Shown piece after piece: positions 10,731 to 17,225 of a stretch of 17,225 bases of DNA. Within the stretch, counting starts at the first letter, position 1, and each line of letters starts with the position of its first letter. Source of the DNA: a virus; the UHGV virus genome UHGV-1699724, one strand, 5' to 3'. The translations under genes were made by a program, and so were the position numbers. The notes below the pieces were generated by a model that was not told the DNA's origin, did not search any database, and saw nothing but the letters and a program-made list of their open reading frames with translations.

Positions 10731-11115
10731 TGCTGCCTCCGTGACTCTGCCTACATTCGCCCAGCTCCGTACACTCCAGCAGCAGAAAGCGCCGCGCCCC
10801 GTTCAGATCACGCTGACGTTTCACCCGGTACACACTGTCATCACAGACCACCTCATAATCAGCAGTGATCCCCCGGCGGTAACGAATGGTGATGTAATGG
10901 GTGATGGCGTCCCCGGTCTGCGCGGTTTCCTGCCAGGTGGTGGCACTGGTCTGGATAACCTTCGCCCATGTCCGGAACGTAACCGGGTATTGAGGCTCCA
11001 CGCCAAAGTTATCCGCGGGCATATCCACCCGCTGGCGGATCAGGACGCGTTTATTCAGTTCACCGGGGTCCGGCAGAATGTAGGTTGCGCTGGTCTGCGC
11101 CTGACGAATTTTCAT
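10705..11115 (-). CDS. Head-tail adaptor / head closure protein (HK97 gp7-like, Phage_H_T_join-like)
   Basis: 136-aa ORF; the region ITHYITIRYRRGITADYEVVCDDSVYRVKRQRDLNGARRFLLLECTEL fits the head-tail joining family pattern. ATGA overlap with the connector gene at 11112-11115. Confidence 0.7.
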   Translation of the reverse strand: MKIRQAQTSATYILPDPGELNKRVLIRQRVDMPADNFGVEPQYPVTFRTWAKVIQTSATTWQETAQTGDAITHYITIRYRRGITADYEVVCDDSVYRVKRQRDLNGARRFLLLECTELGECRQSHGGSNGDSLFSR

Positions 11116-11435
11116 TGCGGAAAGTACCTGTACGGGCCGACAAGCCAGCCAAAACTCTGCGGCATGTCGAGTTTCTCCACTTCCGTAACCGACGAGCGGT
11201 TTTCGTAAAAATGGCTGATAAGCATCAGCATCCCCAGACGAATATCATCCGGCAGGTGCAGCCCGTCAGGATCGCTGTCCGGAATGGTTTCATCCGGTGC
11301 ATAGAGCTTCCGGTTCAGATACGTTTCCGTCCGCTTTTGTGCCGCACAGGCCAGCAGTTGCAGATGGCGGTCATCAGCATCGAAATCCTCATCCAGCCGG
11401 AGTTGGGCTTTAATCTCTTCCATTGTCAGAAGCAT
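11112..11435 (-). CDS. Head-tail connector protein (HK97 gp6-like)
   Basis: 107-aa acidic ORF beginning MLLTMEEIKAQLRLDEDFDADD..., typical of gp6-like connector proteins, in the expected position after the capsid gene. Confidence 0.7.
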   Translation of the reverse strand: MLLTMEEIKAQLRLDEDFDADDRHLQLLACAAQKRTETYLNRKLYAPDETIPDSDPDGLHLPDDIRLGMLMLISHFYENRSSVTEVEKLDMPQSFGWLVGPYRYFPQ

Positions 11436-11437
11436 AC

Positions 11438-11638
11438 TCAGCCCTCTTTACTGGTCGTGGCTTTTTTCTCTTTTGTTGCTTTACTGCTTTTTGCACTGGT
11501 TCCGCGCTCTGCTAACCCGGTCTGAAGTGCAATCTCCTGCACCCGGGCAGGAAGCGCCCCGTCGTCATACTCACCGGCCCGAATGACCTCAACACGCATA
11601 CCGTCCGGTGACCATTTCAGATCTTGTTTCAGGATCAT
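11438..11638 (-). CDS. Small hypothetical protein (66 aa, Lys/Ser/Thr-rich C-terminal tail)
   Basis: ORF MILKQDLKWSPDGMRVEVIRAGEYDDGALPARVQEIALQTGLAERGTSAKSSKATKEKKATTSKEG. Its stop is 2 nt before the connector start and it lies between the capsid and connector genes. No family recognised. Confidence 0.45.
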   Translation of the reverse strand: MILKQDLKWSPDGMRVEVIRAGEYDDGALPARVQEIALQTGLAERGTSAKSSKATKEKKATTSKEG

Positions 11639-12906: not shown

Positions 12907-13557
12907 TTAGAAGTTCAGATTTTTCAGTGCATTCAGTGCAGAGCTCACATCCTCAGCGTCGCGCAGGGACAGTGCGCCATAGCCCCCGGCCATGAATGCT
13001 TTGGCCTGGGTACGGGAGAGTCCGACATCACGCAGGACTCTTTCGATTTTTTTCTGTTCGGGGATTTCCCCGCGGGCCAGCGCGTTCTTGACGTCGCTGA
13101 TCCGCGCCTCGTCGTTAGACGGGAACGTCACCAGACTGACTTCCCAGAGGTCGATTTCTTTCAGCAGAAAGGCTTCTTTCGTCCGGTCGTATTCCCAGTC
13201 TTTCAGGACGTACCCAATAGAAAGGCCGGTTAACGAACCGGCCTTCATGTGTGCATGTGCGCGTTTTGCGAGGGGATCATCATCAATAAGCAACCGTCCC
13301 CTGACGTAAAGCCCGACATCGTCTTCCTTCATTTCGGTGTAAACACCGATGGGTTCATCCATGCGGTGCTGCCAGAGCAGCGCAGGTAACGCTTTTCTGT
13401 CACTCCACGCCCGCAGGGAAGCGGCAAATGCCCCTGACATCACCACATCATCGTGGCTGTCCTTTACACCAAAGACGGAGCCATACCCTTCAAACTCACC
13501 GGAGTCACTGACAGATTTCAGACTCAGCGGTACATCAAGACGTTGTTTCGTCTGCAT
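12907..13557 (-). CDS. Prohead maturation protease (HK97 gp4-like)
   Basis: N-terminal region with ...FEGYGSVFGVKDSHDDVV... in the position between portal and capsid. The track starts at 13593, where no Shine-Dalgarno is visible; the ATG at 13557 (MQTKQR...) has AAGGA upstream and is preferred. Either start overlaps the portal 3' end. Confidence 0.8.
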   Translation of the reverse strand: MQTKQRLDVPLSLKSVSDSGEFEGYGSVFGVKDSHDDVVMSGAFAASLRAWSDRKALPALLWQHRMDEPIGVYTEMKEDDVGLYVRGRLLIDDDPLAKRAHAHMKAGSLTGLSIGYVLKDWEYDRTKEAFLLKEIDLWEVSLVTFPSNDEARISDVKNALARGEIPEQKKIERVLRDVGLSRTQAKAFMAGGYGALSLRDAEDVSSALNALKNLNF

Positions 13558-14776
13558 TGGCGTTATCCTTCTGCTTACCGGCTTTACTGCCATCGGAGGG
13601 TTTCGTGGTCATGTTCATCGGTGTGAGATAGACATCACCACCGGGACGCGGATTCATATCTTCCAGGTCGCGGCAGTCATTGGGAGAGTAAATTCCCCAA
13701 TTGATCCCGGTAGCGTAGGCTTCAAAACGGGACTTCATATCCCCGCGCAGTAAGGCCCCGGCGTTAAATTTGGCGTAATAAACGCCCTGCTTACTTTTTC
13801 GTACCAGTCCGGTGTTGATCCGCTGCTCAATGCGGGTCAGATACGGCACCAGTGAATAGTTGATAAATCCCAGCCCCAGCTCTTCGATATTGTTGAAGGT
13901 GGCGCGATCGGTGTTCTGCACCATGTGCAATGGCACCCGGAACAGACGACAGATTTCTTCAAGCTGAAACTTGCGGGTTTCCAGGAACTGGCTGTCCTCG
14001 GCGTTCAGCGCCATCGACTTCCAGTCCAGCCCCATCTCAAGGATCATCGGGCGGTGAGCATTGCCAAGCCCGGTGTGACGCTCCTCAAAATCTTTCTTCA
14101 GGCGCTCATAAGCCTGATCTGACAGCGTCTGCTCTGTACGCAACACACCCGACGTCACCGCGCCATTGCTGAACAGTCTGGCCCCGTGCTCTTCGGTCGC
14201 TGCCGCCAGCGATATTGCCTCGCGGGCATAGGCGATGGGATTCAGCCCCACCAGTCCGTCCAGCGTCAGCGTGCGCACATGCCAGATATCTTCCTGGCTC
14301 AGTACATCCGTGGAGCCATCCGGGAATGTGACCTGATAGACCGGCTCCCAGCTACTGTTAAGCTTCGGTACCACACAGCCGGGATCGACGGGCAGCAGTT
14401 CAGCCACTTCGCCAAATGCTTTCACTTTGTAGGCGTAAAAGTTTCCCCGCAGGCACAGACAGGTGACCACCAGCTCCCAGAACTCCTGCGGCGTCATATA
14501 GCCATTGGGATGCGTGGAGATCAGCTTATGCAGACGTTCGCCAGTGGCTCTCTGCTTCAGGCTGCCGTTCAGGTGATACAGGTTGCAGGGCAACATCCCG
14601 ACCGACTCCGCCAGCACCCTGACACAGGAAAAAACCGCCGTCAGTCGCATGGCCCGCTGGCTGCTGATCTGCTTTCCGGTATAGGTGTCGTAGGACAACC
14701 CGATAGCATCCGCCAGCTCTGCTGGCGTGGTCACCGGTGCGTCACTTTTTCGTTGAAATAATCCCGAAAAGAACAC
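13535..14776 (-). CDS. Portal protein (HK97 family)
   Basis: 413-aa ORF placed after the large terminase and before the protease. GTG start with GGAGGT 5 nt upstream; the start overlaps the stop of the small membrane ORF (TAGTG). Confidence 0.85.
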   Translation of the reverse strand: MFFSGLFQRKSDAPVTTPAELADAIGLSYDTYTGKQISSQRAMRLTAVFSCVRVLAESVGMLPCNLYHLNGSLKQRATGERLHKLISTHPNGYMTPQEFWELVVTCLCLRGNFYAYKVKAFGEVAELLPVDPGCVVPKLNSSWEPVYQVTFPDGSTDVLSQEDIWHVRTLTLDGLVGLNPIAYAREAISLAAATEEHGARLFSNGAVTSGVLRTEQTLSDQAYERLKKDFEERHTGLGNAHRPMILEMGLDWKSMALNAEDSQFLETRKFQLEEICRLFRVPLHMVQNTDRATFNNIEELGLGFINYSLVPYLTRIEQRINTGLVRKSKQGVYYAKFNAGALLRGDMKSRFEAYATGINWGIYSPNDCRDLEDMNPRPGGDVYLTPMNMTTKPSDGSKAGKQKDNANADETTS

Positions 14777-14958
14777 TATTTACCTCCGCCGACAGACGAC
14801 TGTGTACGGTCGAGATATCGCGCCACCAGCCACGACCAGAACAGGCACAACGCCCCGGCAACAACAAACCCCGCCGGGGGATAAATCAGCCAGGCACCAT
14901 ACGCCAGCAAAAGCACCCCCAGCACGCCCACCAGAGGCGCGAGAATCAGCATGATCAT
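14776..14958 (-). CDS. Small hydrophobic protein, two predicted transmembrane helices (60 aa; possibly e14 YmfR-like)
   Basis: [60 protein letters not shown] has two hydrophobic stretches separated by PPAG. GAGGT lies upstream of the ATG, 11 nt after the terminase stop, and the stop overlaps the portal start. E. coli e14 carries a 60-aa ORF (ymfR) between its terminase and portal remnants; I recall the position, not the sequence. Confidence 0.55.
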
Positions 14959-14969
14959 AATTACCTCAG

Positions 14970-16703
14970 TTAAAGCGAGCGGATCCCGTAGGACTCAATG
15001 TGGTCGGACAGCGTGTCTTCTTTCTCATACAGCATGGCTCTGCCAACCGCCATAATCAGCGCAACTGCACCATCGATTTTGTTTTCCGCCTGCTCTTTGA
15101 CGGGCTTCACCACATCATCGTTACCCGGAATGGTTTTGCCGACCACGTTGCCGATACACCAGGTCATGATGGGATTGCCATCATGATGAAAGCGCCCCGA
15201 TTCAATTGCCGCTTCCAGCTCTTTCATCGGGTCGGACATGTTGGTGTAGTTCTGAATGATGGTGATGGGATTCAGGTCTTCATCAGCAAGGTCATGTGAC
15301 AGCCCGGTAGCCCCGAAGGGGTCGATGGGTGACTCGCTGACCGGGCTGATTTTGTTCGCCGCTTTGGCCTCTTCGAGGATGTAGCGATAATCCACCTCTG
15401 CACCATCGGTAACGGTCAGGACGCCCATTTCCACCCATTTCTGAAAGCGTTCGGCTGTCCGGCGATCTTCATTTTTCTCGACGCTGTACACCGTGTCATA
15501 CGGTACCCAGAAACGCGGGGCCACACTGTAGTAATGCGTTTTACCGTCAATCTCGCGGGTATAAAGTCGCGCCATGCTGTTCATATCCAGCTTACGGGCC
15601 AGGTCAAAGGCCAGAATGCACGGCTGCCCCTCGAACTGCTCAAGGGTCAGTGATTTATCCTCGCAGCTCTGCCAGCTCACCAGGTTGAAATACGCCGAAC
15701 GCGCCGACACCCAGATATTGAGGTGTTTTGTTTTAAAGACGTTTGCCAGACGGGCGTTATTTTTCGCACGCTGCTGCTGACTTAACAAAAATTCGCGATA
15801 AACCGACACGCCAATATTCGGGTTAGCTTTTTCCAGCACCTGCGGGTCGGTCCAGTCATCGCCTTCGTCAACGGTATAGATGATCCCGAACAGTTCATCG
15901 TTGGGTACCGACCCGTTGAGCATCTCGATAACTTCCCGTCGCTTGTCGTAGCACGGCCCCTCAATGTTGTACCCGGCAGTAGTAATGGCCCACATCAGTG
16001 GCTGACGTCGCGCCCCCATCCCGGTAAGCATCGTGGTGTAAAGCGCATCGGTGGCGTGCTCGTGATATTCATCCACCACCGCACAGTGGGGTGATGAACC
16101 ATCACCGGGGTTACCGATCAGCGGTTCAAACCGCGCGCCATCCTCCGGACGATTCATGTTTGAGGCGTTAACCTCAATCCCGAACGCTTCCGTCAGCATG
16201 GGTGTGCGTTTACACATCAGTCGCGCCGGGCGAAAGACTTCCCACGCCTGTTTCTCTGTCGTGGCACCGGAATACACTTCCGCGCCAAACTCGTTATCAC
16301 AGGCAAAACAATACAGGGCAACACCGGCAGAGATTGCCGATTTGCCGTTCTTACGGGGGATTTCGGTATACACCTCCCGGAAGCGGCGCAGCCGGGACCC
16401 TTTATTGACCCAGCCAAACGCACAGCAGACCACAAATAGCTGCCATGGCTCCAGCGTGATGGGCATCCTCTTGAATGCCCACTCACCCTTGGTGTGCGGC
16501 AACAGCTGAATAAATTTGGCGGCCCGTTCAGCCAGGTCCTTGTCGAAGCGGTAACGAAACGACTTACTTTTTTCCGCCATCAGGTCATCAAGATGGCGCT
16601 GGCAGGCCTGAATCACAAACTGGCAGGCCACAATCTTTCCGCGCACAACATCACGGGCATACTGATTGGCAGCATTTACGTTGGGGTAAGATTTCCGGCT
16701 CAT
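14970..16703 (-). CDS. Terminase large subunit (HK97-type)
   Basis: 577-aa ORF with a P-loop-like motif [16 protein letters not shown] near the N-terminus and acidic nuclease-like motifs in the C-terminal half. ATGA overlap with the small terminase stop at 16700-16703. Confidence 0.9.
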
Positions 16704-17194
16704 GACTCGATGATTTTCAGAAACGGGTTAGTGGCTTTCTTCTGCCCCGCCAGGCCAATCAGACGCTGGCGGCTGCTGGGGTCGAGTCCGAGCATTGCCC
16801 CCGTGCTGCTCATCTCGGACTCCTGTTCTTTTTTGGCGGTCAGCTCCGGATTTTTGACCCTGCCGCCCATTGCACCGGTGATGGTGTTGCCCTGTATGGC
16901 AATATTTTTCACGGCACGTCGCCAGAACTCATAGGCCACGCACCACCGCTCAAGCACCGCGAGGTCAGTCACGCACAACAGGCCCTGACCGCAGAGTTCT
17001 TTGGTTGTCAGTTGCCACATGATCGTGGCGAGAGGGAGATTTTCTTCTGCGAACCACTCCGGTGGCTCAACACCTTTGATGGGCGTAAAAACAGGTTCAT
17101 CTTTATTCAGGGCTCGCTTGCCGGGGTTTCCGGCCAGCGCCTTGCGCGCCGTTGGCTTGGGGCGACGCCCGGAACGCCCCGCCGTTCCAGCCAT
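16700..17194 (-). CDS. Terminase small subunit (P27-family-like)
   Basis: N-terminus [30 protein letters not shown] matches the basic GRPPKP...GNPGKR pattern of P27-type small terminases, directly upstream of and overlapping the large terminase. The track's extension to 17215 (MYKRQPH...) starts from a GTG inside adapter sequence and is rejected; the true ATG is at 17194. Confidence 0.8.
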
Positions 17195-17200
17195 ATGCGG

Positions 17201-17225
17201 CTGTCTCTTATACACATCTCCGAGC
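17201..17225. other. Non-biological sequence: Tn5 mosaic end / Nextera adapter at the window edge
   Basis: 17201-17225 reads CTGTCTCTTATACACATCTCCGAGC, which is the 19-nt Tn5 mosaic end followed by the first 6 nt of the Nextera adapter tail (CCGAGCCCACGAGAC). The reverse complement of the mosaic end, GTGTATAAGAGACAG, encodes the familiar 'MYKRQ' artefact start. Confidence 0.9.

Follow-up and report, generated by a model that had tools for sequence, protein, structure and literature searches.

The results showed that ymfR, a small gene of an SfV/e14-like prophage and part of its late head/packaging operon, makes up a conserved unit of two genes together with the HK97-type portal gene that follows it. 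The gene itself was already known (ymfR, PHROG 502, IPR020297); what is new here is that, in at least four phyla, it travels end to start with the portal gene, the two being joined by a termination-reinitiation junction that is likewise conserved. Going by gene order and coupling alone, we tentatively infer that YmfR could be a membrane-anchored accessory which acts together with the portal and not on the host or on rival phages, and we would give this reading a probability of roughly 0.35. A conserved head-module accessory is more likely than a stray host-acting moron. The window, i.e., the whole stretch of DNA that was analyzed, is 17,225 nucleotides long, and the features used in the analysis were as follows:

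14970..16703, minus strand: terminase large subunit (TerL) gene, 577 aa, upstream neighbor of ymfR (Pfam PF03354 and PF20441, TerL_ATPase and TerL_nuclease)
14959..14969, minus strand: TerL-ymfR spacer of 11 nt (ctgaggtaatt) with a GAGG Shine-Dalgarno motif at 14967..14964 (read directly from the sequence)
14776..14958, minus strand: ymfR coding sequence, 60 aa plus TAG (ORF list, identity to K-12 YmfR, PHROG 502, PGAP)
14884..14955, minus strand: predicted transmembrane helix 1, residues 2-25 (hydropathy, AlphaFold2, conservation in 132 members)
14854..14898, minus strand: family signature, residues 21-35, covering the end of helix 1, the tight turn and the start of helix 2 (conservation in 132 members and synonymous third-position variation across lineages)
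14821..14868, minus strand: predicted transmembrane helix 2, residues 31-46, followed by the conserved R/K47 (hydropathy, conservation, AlphaFold2)
14774..14787, minus strand: coupling junction, with the portal Shine-Dalgarno motif and the overlap of ymfR stop and portal start (sequence; overlap type found in 35 of 45 loci across phyla)
13535..14776, minus strand: HK97-family portal gene, 413 aa, the conserved partner of ymfR (Pfam PF04860, E 4.4e-108)
11112..11435: HK97-type adaptor, with the C terminus ...GPYRYFPQ

A preliminary description of this DNA had placed a real 60-codon ORF with its own Shine-Dalgarno motif 11 nt after the terminase stop, and had its stop overlapping the portal start, all of which agreed with the sequence. 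The TerL gene ends with TAA at 14972..14970, the spacer (14969..14959) carries GAGG 5 nt before the ymfR start codon (ATG, 14958..14956), and the ymfR stop codon (TAG, 14778..14776) has one base in common with the portal start codon (GTG, 14776..14774), which gives TAGTG. The Shine-Dalgarno motif of the portal (GGAGG, 14787..14783) is embedded in ymfR codons 57-59 (GGGK), 6 nt upstream of the portal GTG. Because the portal start overlaps the ymfR stop and its Shine-Dalgarno motif lies in the last ymfR codons, ribosomes that finish YmfR can reinitiate on the portal, and the short spacer, the overlap and the embedded motif together confirmed the coupling to TerL and portal that had been described. 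PGAP, applied to the identical DNA, called the same three genes with the same boundaries and named the small ORF 'protein YmfR'.

ORFs of 40 aa or more are frequent here, with 42 of them overlapping these 5.7 kb, so that the length of the ORF is by itself no evidence of a gene, and ymfR was counted as one because of its conservation, as seen in PHROG 502, the family clusters, the pN/pS comparison and the third-position variation. The product matched the PHROG 502 profile with an E value of 3.6e-28, with residues 1-55 aligned to profile positions 3-57 of 58, and it was identical to E. coli K-12 YmfR (b1150) at 59 of 60 positions, in agreement with the equivalence to e14 YmfR suggested earlier. 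In comparison to other enterobacterial copies, pN was ~0.15 to 0.19 and pS was 0.44 to 0.70, and codon third positions were found to vary freely across lineages at the invariant residues, demonstrating that ymfR is a genuine protein-coding gene under purifying selection. In the e14 element of K-12, YmfR ('IPR020297 domain-containing protein YmfR') has the terminase remnant ymfN/aaaE upstream and the portal remnant beeE downstream, with the same overlap as here; the flanking genes have decayed in e14, whereas in the window both are intact (577 aa for TerL, 413 aa for portal), so that ymfR here sits in a seemingly functional head module.

The ymfR locus was present in 1561 of 5426 complete E. 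coli genomes (~29%), and the YmfR family comprised 468 clusters at 50% identity (E<=1e-3) among 1.8 billion representatives, nearly all of 45 to 110 aa, distributed over Proteobacteria, Firmicutes, Actinobacteria and Chloroflexi. The gene is very common, and it constantly accompanies the HK97-type portal gene instead of being a lineage-specific extra. The second suggestion of the preliminary description, a conserved small protein with no assigned function, was thus the one that held, with a conservation far wider than the SfV-like phages. The distant homologues from other phyla all matched PHROG 502, which is named 'membrane protein' in the category 'moron, auxiliary metabolic gene and host takeover' and whose members include phiKO2 gp3, phiE125 gp3, ST64B Sb3, Azospirillum phage Cd gp30 and those of phiP27, SfI, SfII and SfIV; in the phage members the gene likewise sits between TerL and portal. 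At E<=1 the PHROG scan of YmfR returned solely PHROG 502 and three unnamed families. No family was obtained for YmfR in the Pfam, NCBIfam and PADLOC scans or for eight distant homologues in the Pfam scan, and PADLOC at E<=1 gave 0 families for YmfR and for a Reyranella homologue. Among the matches listed (150 of 468 and 120 of 265), the longest of which was 122 aa, there were no fusions to the portal or to other domains, no Pfam domains and no informative names. In the literature we found no functional study of ymfR or its homologues, or of any small membrane protein encoded in the TerL-portal interval, the mentions of ymfR being confined to e14 deletion lists and one expression (differential-abundance) table. 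The earlier statement that sequence by itself gives YmfR no function was correct.

The linkage to the portal gene was compared across loci. A PF04860-type portal gene was located directly downstream of ymfR in 45 of the 48 loci found by peptide pattern, and in five out of five divergent members found by HMM alone. Among the pattern-found loci, L024 ends at a contig edge, and L033 and L041 hold a family member with no adjacent portal. The stop and start codons overlap by 1 nt (TGATG, TAATG or TAGTG) in 35 of the 45 loci and as ATGA in 2, and the gap was larger than 10 nt in one locus only; the same slot and the same portal overlap were seen from E. coli to Reyranella, Ruminococcaceae, Micromonospora and Dehalococcoidia. 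Inserted genes (Usp plus Fic, HicB genes, or an unknown ORF) fall between TerL and ymfR and never between ymfR and portal, and in the Serratia loci YmfR and portal have stayed together (66% and 89% identity, respectively) through an exchange of TerL (37%). The partial correlation of divergence was 0.66 for YmfR and portal given TerL, in comparison to 0.21 for YmfR and TerL given portal. The gene was present in all close relatives examined. It was absent only in distant lineages, represented by HK97, Xop411, Acidovorax Aval and Streptococcus Javan102, the last of which has a portal 39% identical to the portal here and yet carries no ymfR, and ymfR is thus not essential for an HK97-type portal; in HK97 the TerL stop overlaps the portal start directly. 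As a separate observation, which counts against a portal partner, such tight linkage could partly be mechanical, as the overlap leaves no intergenic space for recombination.

Residues 1-46 of YmfR are hydrophobic with a dip at YPPAG (GRAVY 1.26), and the AlphaFold2 model showed a helix at residues 2-25, a break, and a helix at residues 27-56, with pLDDT of ~80-86 over the helices; at the level of prediction, the two-helix membrane hairpin described earlier was retained. Helix 1 presents a face of glycine and small residues (G11, G14, G21, and in the wider family also A15 and S19). Among 132 family members, conservation was 100% for G35, 98% for G14 and G21, 88% for P28 and G30, 81% for A29, 78% for W23, and 73% for G11 and Y26. 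The family core is G14, G21, W23, Y26, xPAG(F/Y) and G35, and all signature residues are present here (G14, G21, W23, Y26, P28-A29-G30-F/Y31, G35 and R/K47). The mean number of lysines plus arginines over the 132 members was 1.96 at the N end, 0.18 in the turn and 2.31 in the C tail, and basic residues at both ends with nearly none at the turn point to an N-in/C-in orientation, the turn lying on the outer side of the cytoplasmic membrane. YmfR is predicted to be a helical hairpin of ~60 aa with two hydrophobic helices, a tight Y-x-P-A-G turn, and both ends inside. Tandem-duplicated family members also occur (P0153, P0166 and P0174), and together with the glycine/small-residue faces they suggest that the hairpins may pack together as oligomers. 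When the AlphaFold2 model was searched by Foldseek against BFVD and PDB, nothing was found at E<=0.001 and only uncharacterized small phage hairpins were returned, and the PDB sequence search gave only a marginal likeness between helix 1 and the transmembrane dimerization helix of glycophorin A (E 0.45). Two further observations on the predicted topology speak against a portal partner: conservation of YmfR is lowest at the ends exposed to the cytoplasm, where contact with the portal would have to be made, and highest in a motif that is predicted to point away from the cytoplasmic side.

In the role we propose, YmfR and portal would be made together by translation termination-reinitiation, the hairpin would insert in the cytoplasmic membrane with N-in/C-in topology, possibly as an oligomer, and it would place or hold the new portal, the nascent prohead or the packaging vertex at that membrane, a role which may be functionally analogous to that of the membrane-bound, gp40-dependent gp20 portal initiator of T4. 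YmfR would be helpful and dispensable in this role, given that some phages with a portal of this type, HK97 among them, do without ymfR. In T4, gp40 helps the portal initiator to assemble on the inner membrane (PMC9958956). The comparison with T4 gp40/gp20, where a phage factor enables the portal to initiate heads at the cytoplasmic membrane, is proposed as an analogy only, and at E<=1 the PHROG scan gave YmfR no match to a gp40 PHROG. Genes 40 and 20 are not neighbors in T4, and HK97-type heads are not known to have a membrane-bound assembly step. A broader proposal, possible and on the unlikely side in our judgment, is that YmfR-like hairpins might constitute a pan-bacterial class of head-morphogenesis factors that had so far been overlooked. 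The hairpins would form an oligomer anchored in the membrane, perhaps a ring that fits the 12-fold portal; reinitiating ribosomes would produce it immediately ahead of each portal subunit, and it would dock or nucleate the HK97-type portal at the cytoplasmic membrane. If true, membrane-initiated prohead assembly, so far a peculiarity of T4, would be widespread in the commonest head type of temperate phages. The proposed membrane-anchored portal partner also bears on how HK97-like heads, which have no separate scaffold, recruit exactly one portal.

The preliminary description had preferred a moron that acts on the membrane, for superinfection exclusion or as a class II holin or antiholin, and this role was not supported, given that ymfR has no promoter or terminator of its own and a GC3 like that of its neighbors, is not patchy among the close relatives examined, keeps a fixed overlap with the portal, and is separate from the lysis cassette. 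In the lysis version, YmfR would be a pinholin, a holin/antiholin-like protein or a viroporin, whose hairpin oligomers make small lesions or modulate the true holin, with its output tied to the portal so that lysis is timed to head production. YmfR resembles class II holins and pinholins (phage 21 S68) in its size of ~60 aa, two transmembrane helices, predicted N-in/C-in topology and glycine-rich faces; these faces and the tandem-duplicated members hint at oligomers in the membrane, and the weak resemblance of helix 1 to the glycophorin A helix is a further point for the lysis version. We nevertheless consider the lysis version unlikely, as neither YmfR nor its distant homologues matched a holin family in Pfam or PHROGs at the thresholds applied, the charge cluster of the short C tail is weak in comparison to class II holins, and the gene is outside the lysis cassette. 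The prophage already has a complete cassette elsewhere, with a lambda-family holin, a GH104 endolysin and Rz/Rz1-like genes ~4 kb upstream, before HNH and TerS, and no endolysin adjoins ymfR in any of ~50 loci. A dual-start (Met1/Met3) holin/antiholin motif was also considered and rejected, as the Met1/Met3 pair is not conserved in homologues.

In the exclusion version, YmfR would sit in the inner membrane and keep the DNA of incoming phages from entering, in the manner of HK97 gp15 or T4 Imm. HK97 gp15 is a small inner-membrane superinfection exclusion moron within the late morphogenetic operon, which illustrates that small inner-membrane proteins embedded in late operons can act in this way; PHROG 502 is placed in the moron/host takeover category, and all ymfR carriers seen appear to be temperate phages or prophages. 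The version is improbable in our view, since HK97 gp15 and T4 Imm are lineage-restricted and prophage- or early-expressed, whereas YmfR is pan-phylum and translationally coupled to the portal, and a fixed position with portal overlap in at least four phyla, including Gram-positives, is unexpected for a host- or phage-specific exclusion factor. YmfR also had no PADLOC match at E<=1. The promoter scan of 3.8 kb gave 2 sites in comparison to 2.3 expected, with none near ymfR, and no ymfR terminator was found above the shuffled expectation, the terminator-like matches within the ORF being by-products of the codons. One of these, a possible intrinsic terminator or RNA hairpin at 14882..14868, was rejected, as its stem consists of the PPAG codons, whose third positions vary freely across lineages with no compensation. 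The composition of ymfR matches its flanks (GC3 of 0.70 in comparison to 0.65 to 0.68 in TerL and portal), and its higher overall GC is due to Gly/Ala/Leu/Val/Pro codons. In e14, ymfR was induced alongside other e14 genes under SOS-inducing treatment, rising with the lytic genes and not standing out as lysogen-expressed (PMC10012262). The moron category of PHROG 502 is not supported by the context of ymfR, which behaves as a fixed part of the portal unit.

It was also considered that YmfR is a virion-borne, infection-stage protein, a few copies of which would be taken up at the portal vertex and would leave together with the DNA, aiding its passage across the cytoplasmic membrane of the next host. 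The gene sits in the head module and is co-expressed with the portal across tail types (the SfV-like myovirus here, the siphoviruses phiKO2 and phiE125), and the cytoplasmic membrane is the sole envelope layer common to all carrier hosts. However, a hydrophobic hairpin of 46 residues would be hard to keep soluble in a capsid, the basic ends are as expected for a protein inserted from the cytoplasm of the cell that makes it, and we found no virion-proteome report of YmfR, which leaves this explanation quite doubtful.

Very improbable is a functionless peptide, whose ORF would serve only to bring ribosomes to the start of the portal gene. No features of the locus are more regular than the stop/start overlap and the portal Shine-Dalgarno motif within ymfR, and HK97 manages with no such ORF through the direct TerL-portal overlap; amino acids that are conserved while third positions vary, pN well below pS, and three glycines that are 98% to 100% invariant across phyla argue against it.

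The weakest explanation, a head-tail joining protein equivalent to lambda gpW, is effectively refuted by the hhalign probability of 2.85%, with just four residues (PAGF) aligned, and by the predicted topology. Lambda gpW (68 aa; PDB 1HYW, 8K38) is similar to YmfR in length and slot, W being located between terminase A and portal B, and the tetrapeptide PAGF is shared with the C-arm of gpW, which binds the portal by beta-sheet augmentation (PMC10721106). However, gpW is a soluble alpha/beta protein of two helices plus a beta-hairpin with a portal-binding C-arm and YmfR a hydrophobic hairpin, the PAGF of YmfR lies at the predicted outer-face turn and not at a free C terminus, and genes for an HK97-type adaptor and for a head closure protein are already present in the prophage; no match of YmfR to the gpW family was found in Pfam or PHROGs. 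Mimicry of the C-arm of the adaptor was likewise rejected, as the end of the prophage's own adaptor (...GPYRYFPQ) is unlike the YmfR motif. The gpW label carried by ymfR in ON470603, ON470584, ON470580 and PQ793804 is a positional mis-annotation. The name 'head-tail joining protein W', which some pipelines give to ymfR, and the classification as a moron in PHROGs are both probably misleading and are spreading in new phage annotations.

The ymfR gene, whose product YmfR is 60 aa long, is enclosed between the TerL gene and the gene for an HK97-type portal protein, with the following boundaries.

14970..16703, minus strand: TerL ORF, 577 aa, with the Pfam domains TerL_ATPase and TerL_nuclease; TAA at 14972..14970
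11-nt spacer, minus strand: ctGAGGtaatt, read from the sequence, between the TerL TAA and the ymfR ATG
14776..14958, minus strand: ymfR, 60 codons, ATG at 14958, TAG at 14778..14776
13535..14776, minus strand: portal gene, 413 aa, Pfam Phage_portal, E 4e-108

The ymfR TAG and the portal GTG share one G, last in the stop and first in the start, and the GGAGG of the portal gene lies inside ymfR codons 57-59. The preliminary description had reported an ORF with its own Shine-Dalgarno motif, starting 11 nt past the TerL stop and ending over the portal start; all of these elements were found again in the sequence, and on identical DNA the PGAP boundaries match for all three genes, with the small gene named ymfR. 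The window is a piece of an SfV/e14-like prophage. In strain muskdeer13-4, an identical copy of this prophage has an integration site adjoining tRNA-Thr and proA, and carries a lambda-type lysis cassette, an HNH endonuclease, a P27-type TerS, TerL, ymfR and the portal, along with a protease and a capsid of HK97 type and a contractile tail that is Mu-like.

A 60-codon ORF alone is no evidence of a gene, since 42 ORFs of 40 aa or more overlap the same 5.7-kb stretch. The comparisons nevertheless demonstrated that ymfR is a conserved gene under selection, encoding a small predicted membrane hairpin. The window protein is identical at 59 of 60 residues to E. coli K-12 YmfR (b1150, from the cryptic prophage e14), the equivalent which had been suggested earlier, and it matches PHROG 502 with E 3.6e-28. 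Among 5426 complete E. coli genomes, 1561 carry the locus. When 1.84 billion cluster representatives were searched with a profile, 468 clusters matched at E<=1e-3, and nearly all of the 150 matches listed are 45-110 aa in length. For the window ymfR against other enterobacterial copies, pN was 0.15 to 0.19 in comparison to a pS of 0.44 to 0.70, and in the codons of invariant residues every synonymous third position is in use across lineages. A pattern scan also reported two terminator-like hairpins inside ymfR on the minus strand, at 14868-14882 and 14913-14940. The first, CCCCCGGCGGGG then TTTGTTGTT, encodes PPAGFVV; in other lineages its third positions change freely and no compensating changes accompany them. 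A terminator or attenuator at 14868-14882 was therefore rejected and the hairpin regarded as a by-product of the Pro-Pro-Ala-Gly-Phe codons.

The two-transmembrane hairpin proposed earlier was also predicted by both methods used here. Hydropathy gave a hydrophobic stretch over residues 1-46 which dips at YPPAG, and AlphaFold2, run on a 132-sequence alignment, gave a helix at 2-25, a break at 26 and a helix at 27-56 (pLDDT 80-86 for the helices, 58 for the tail). Among 132 diverse members, G35 is invariant, followed by G14 and G21 (98%), P28 and G30 (88% each), A29 (81%), W23 (78%), R/K47 (75%), and Y26 and G11 (73% each). The position preceding the conserved proline is variable and often charged (E, R, K, H, Q), which fits a solvent-exposed turn. 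In these members the mean number of Lys+Arg was 1.96 for the N end and 2.31 for the C tail, but 0.18 for the turn; the positive-inside rule would thus put both ends in the cytoplasm, and the W...Y-x-P-A-G aromatic turn is predicted to lie at the outer interface of the membrane. Both helices carry a small residue every three to four positions, and three family members (P0153, P0166 and P0174) are head-to-tail duplicated hairpins with four predicted transmembrane helices, a tandem duplicate at locus L134:64-399 still being directly upstream of a portal gene. The spacing and the duplicates fit tight helix packing and oligomerisation, and the duplicates hint at a working unit of at least two hairpins. 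For the C-terminal GG(E/D/K), semi-conserved in the family (window 14779-14790, ymfR codons 57-60), the best explanation lies in the DNA: its codons form the portal gene's purine-rich Shine-Dalgarno, and its conservation is probably imposed by that translation signal and not by YmfR function.

The relationship with the portal gene was analysed in a locus scan seeded with the YPPAG motif, with one genome per species, which yielded 48 loci. The sources were Enterobacterales, Pseudaeromonas, Burkholderiales and many Alphaproteobacteria (including Reyranella, Rhizobium, Shinella, Sulfitobacter and Sphingopyxis), together with Ruminococcaceae, Yanshouia, Micromonospora and one Dehalococcoidia MAG. 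An HK97-type portal gene lies directly downstream on the same strand in 45 of the 48 loci, and one further contig (L024) ends too early to be scored. As the scan was seeded with YPPAG, five divergent members recovered by HMM only were examined in addition, and all five, including a tandem duplicate and members without YPP, have a PF04860 portal directly downstream. The junctions, listed below, are strikingly uniform.

Table. Junction between ymfR and the portal gene in 45 loci
TGATG, TAATG or TAGTG (1-nt overlap): 35
ATGA-type 4-nt overlap, including one GTGA: 2
23-nt overlap: 3
Gap of 3 nt: 2
Gap of 7 nt: 1
Gap of 136 nt: 1
Unscored by the script (L044, frameshifted portal; the printed sequence reads TGATG): 1

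In Proteobacteria, Firmicutes, Actinobacteria and Chloroflexi alike, a junction of the termination-reinitiation type binds ymfR to the portal gene. The upstream neighbour is usually, not always, TerL: opposite-strand Usp and Fic/DOC genes stand between TerL and ymfR in Reyranella (L038, 1815-3868), two HicB-like antitoxin genes and a TerS-like ORF in Yanshouia hominis (L047, 1217-3917), and an unknown ORF precedes ymfR in locus L138, while no gene was found inserted between ymfR and the portal gene in the loci compared. Insertion and module exchange concentrate at the TerL-ymfR boundary and not at the ymfR-portal boundary. In Serratia loci TerL has been exchanged (37% identity to the type in locus L016), while YmfR (66%) and the portal (89%) remain together; with TerL controlled, YmfR and portal divergence had a partial correlation of 0.66 across 33 loci, in comparison to 0.21 for YmfR and TerL with the portal controlled. 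Two alphaproteobacterial members (L033:489-749 and L041:922-1257) have no downstream portal gene. Behind the former come two unknown ORFs, then genes for an S78 prohead protease and a tape-measure-like protein; this may be a decayed prophage or a satellite-like element.

The gene is not universal with this portal type. No family member was found in Xop411, Acidovorax Aval or Streptococcus Javan102, the last of which has a portal 39% identical to that of the window, and in HK97 the TerL stop overlaps the portal start directly. Three overlapping tblastn searches found ymfR in 26, 54 and 2 cultured-phage records, against 2216 with the same portal type, and these carrier counts are lower bounds since the very divergent member of Vibrio phage K339 was missed by BLAST. 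Carriers include phiKO2 (gp3), phiE125 (gp3), PY54, phiP27, SfI, SfII, SfIV, ST64B and Azospirillum phage Cd, that is, both myoviruses and siphoviruses, which places ymfR in the head module.

What the carriers have in common is the portal and the cytoplasmic membrane. The most economical model, to which we would give a probability of roughly one in three, is that YmfR may act as a membrane anchor or chaperone which would keep freshly synthesised portal, or else the nascent prohead or the packaging vertex, in place at the membrane. The one documented parallel is the T4 portal initiator gp20, which assembles on the inner membrane aided by gp40 (PMC9958956). Four points count against this model: conservation is poor in the tails exposed to the cytoplasm, the motif conserved best is predicted to face outward, several phages with the same portal type have no ymfR, and part of the linkage could have arisen mechanically from the overlap. 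A function like that of a pinholin or viroporin, as a membrane lesion or in lysis timing, would fit the size, topology and glycine faces of YmfR but seems unlikely given that YmfR has no holin family match and that a full lysis cassette is present elsewhere in the prophage. A superinfection-exclusion moron appears somewhat more doubtful still: PADLOC gave no match, no promoter or terminator of its own was found for ymfR, its composition matches that of the neighbouring genes, e14 ymfR is co-induced with the remaining e14 genes under SOS-inducing treatment, and its retention beside the portal gene in hosts with differing envelopes makes a host-specific receptor or a rival phage an unlikely target. 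While the YmfR equivalence and the coupling put forward in the preliminary description held, its emphasis on moron, holin or exclusion functions did not. We would rate a virion-borne DNA-entry helper slightly lower again, and a pure ribosome-delivery ORF, contradicted by the amino-acid conservation, as very improbable; the remaining share belongs to some explanation not yet thought of.

A gpW-type head-tail joining protein is the least probable reading of all. [quoted passage not shown] However, profile comparison, for which the gpW sequence was checked against PDB 1HYW beforehand, aligned only these four residues (probability 2.85%) and a relationship was rejected; the YmfR motif is a predicted intramembrane or outer-face turn whereas that of gpW is a free C terminus, and the prophage encodes its own HK97-type adaptor, whose C terminus is unrelated. 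The resemblance was treated as coincidence, and the label "head-tail joining protein W" on the ymfR homologues of ON470603.1, ON470584.1, ON470580.1 and PQ793804.1, which is probably being spread by annotation pipelines, as positional mis-annotation.

The entity itself is already known as ymfR, a member of PHROG 502 with an IPR020297 tag in the K-12 record. There is no Pfam or NCBIfam model for it, no informative family name appeared from any source among the matches listed in two large protein searches, membership was found in none of the holin, defence or gpW families tested, and the full-text literature searched yielded no functional study. What may be new is the pan-phylum pairing of ymfR with the HK97-type portal gene, of which earlier mention beyond the literature searched is possible; if true, the "moron" category of PHROG 502 is probably wrong. 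ymfR is a very common, already annotated prophage gene, and a widespread and experimentally tractable candidate portal partner.

Several records deserve a separate remark. YmfR copies 94-98% identical to the E. coli type were found in a "Bacillota bacterium" MAG (L003), in Edwardsiella hoshinae NBRC 105699 (L006) and in the 1764-bp OR844959.1 ("Enterococcus phage Efm 3-10"); in the first two the neighbouring head genes are also E. coli-type-like, and contamination or misbinning is more likely for all three than true host range. In E. coli NZ_CP128596.1 (L001:18449-20181), PGAP marks TerL as frameshifted although this record and the window are 100% identical over the ymfR region; in the window TerL is an intact 577-aa ORF, so that either the TerL sequences differ or that assembly carries an indel error. 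Directly 3' of the major capsid gene, a hydrophilic 66-aa ORF (11438-11638, minus strand), annotated as a hypothetical protein on related DNA (L001 23513-23713), is another small conserved head-module gene. The last 25 bases of the window (17201-17225, CTGTCTCTTATACACATCTCCGAGC) are Illumina Nextera/Tn5 mosaic-end adapter read-through, which makes that end an assembly artefact. The first codons (MYKRQPH) of the TerS ORF listed at 16700..17215 (GTG start, 171 aa) come from this adapter, and the true TerS start is the ATG at 17196 (MAGTAGRSG...), matching PGAP on identical DNA.
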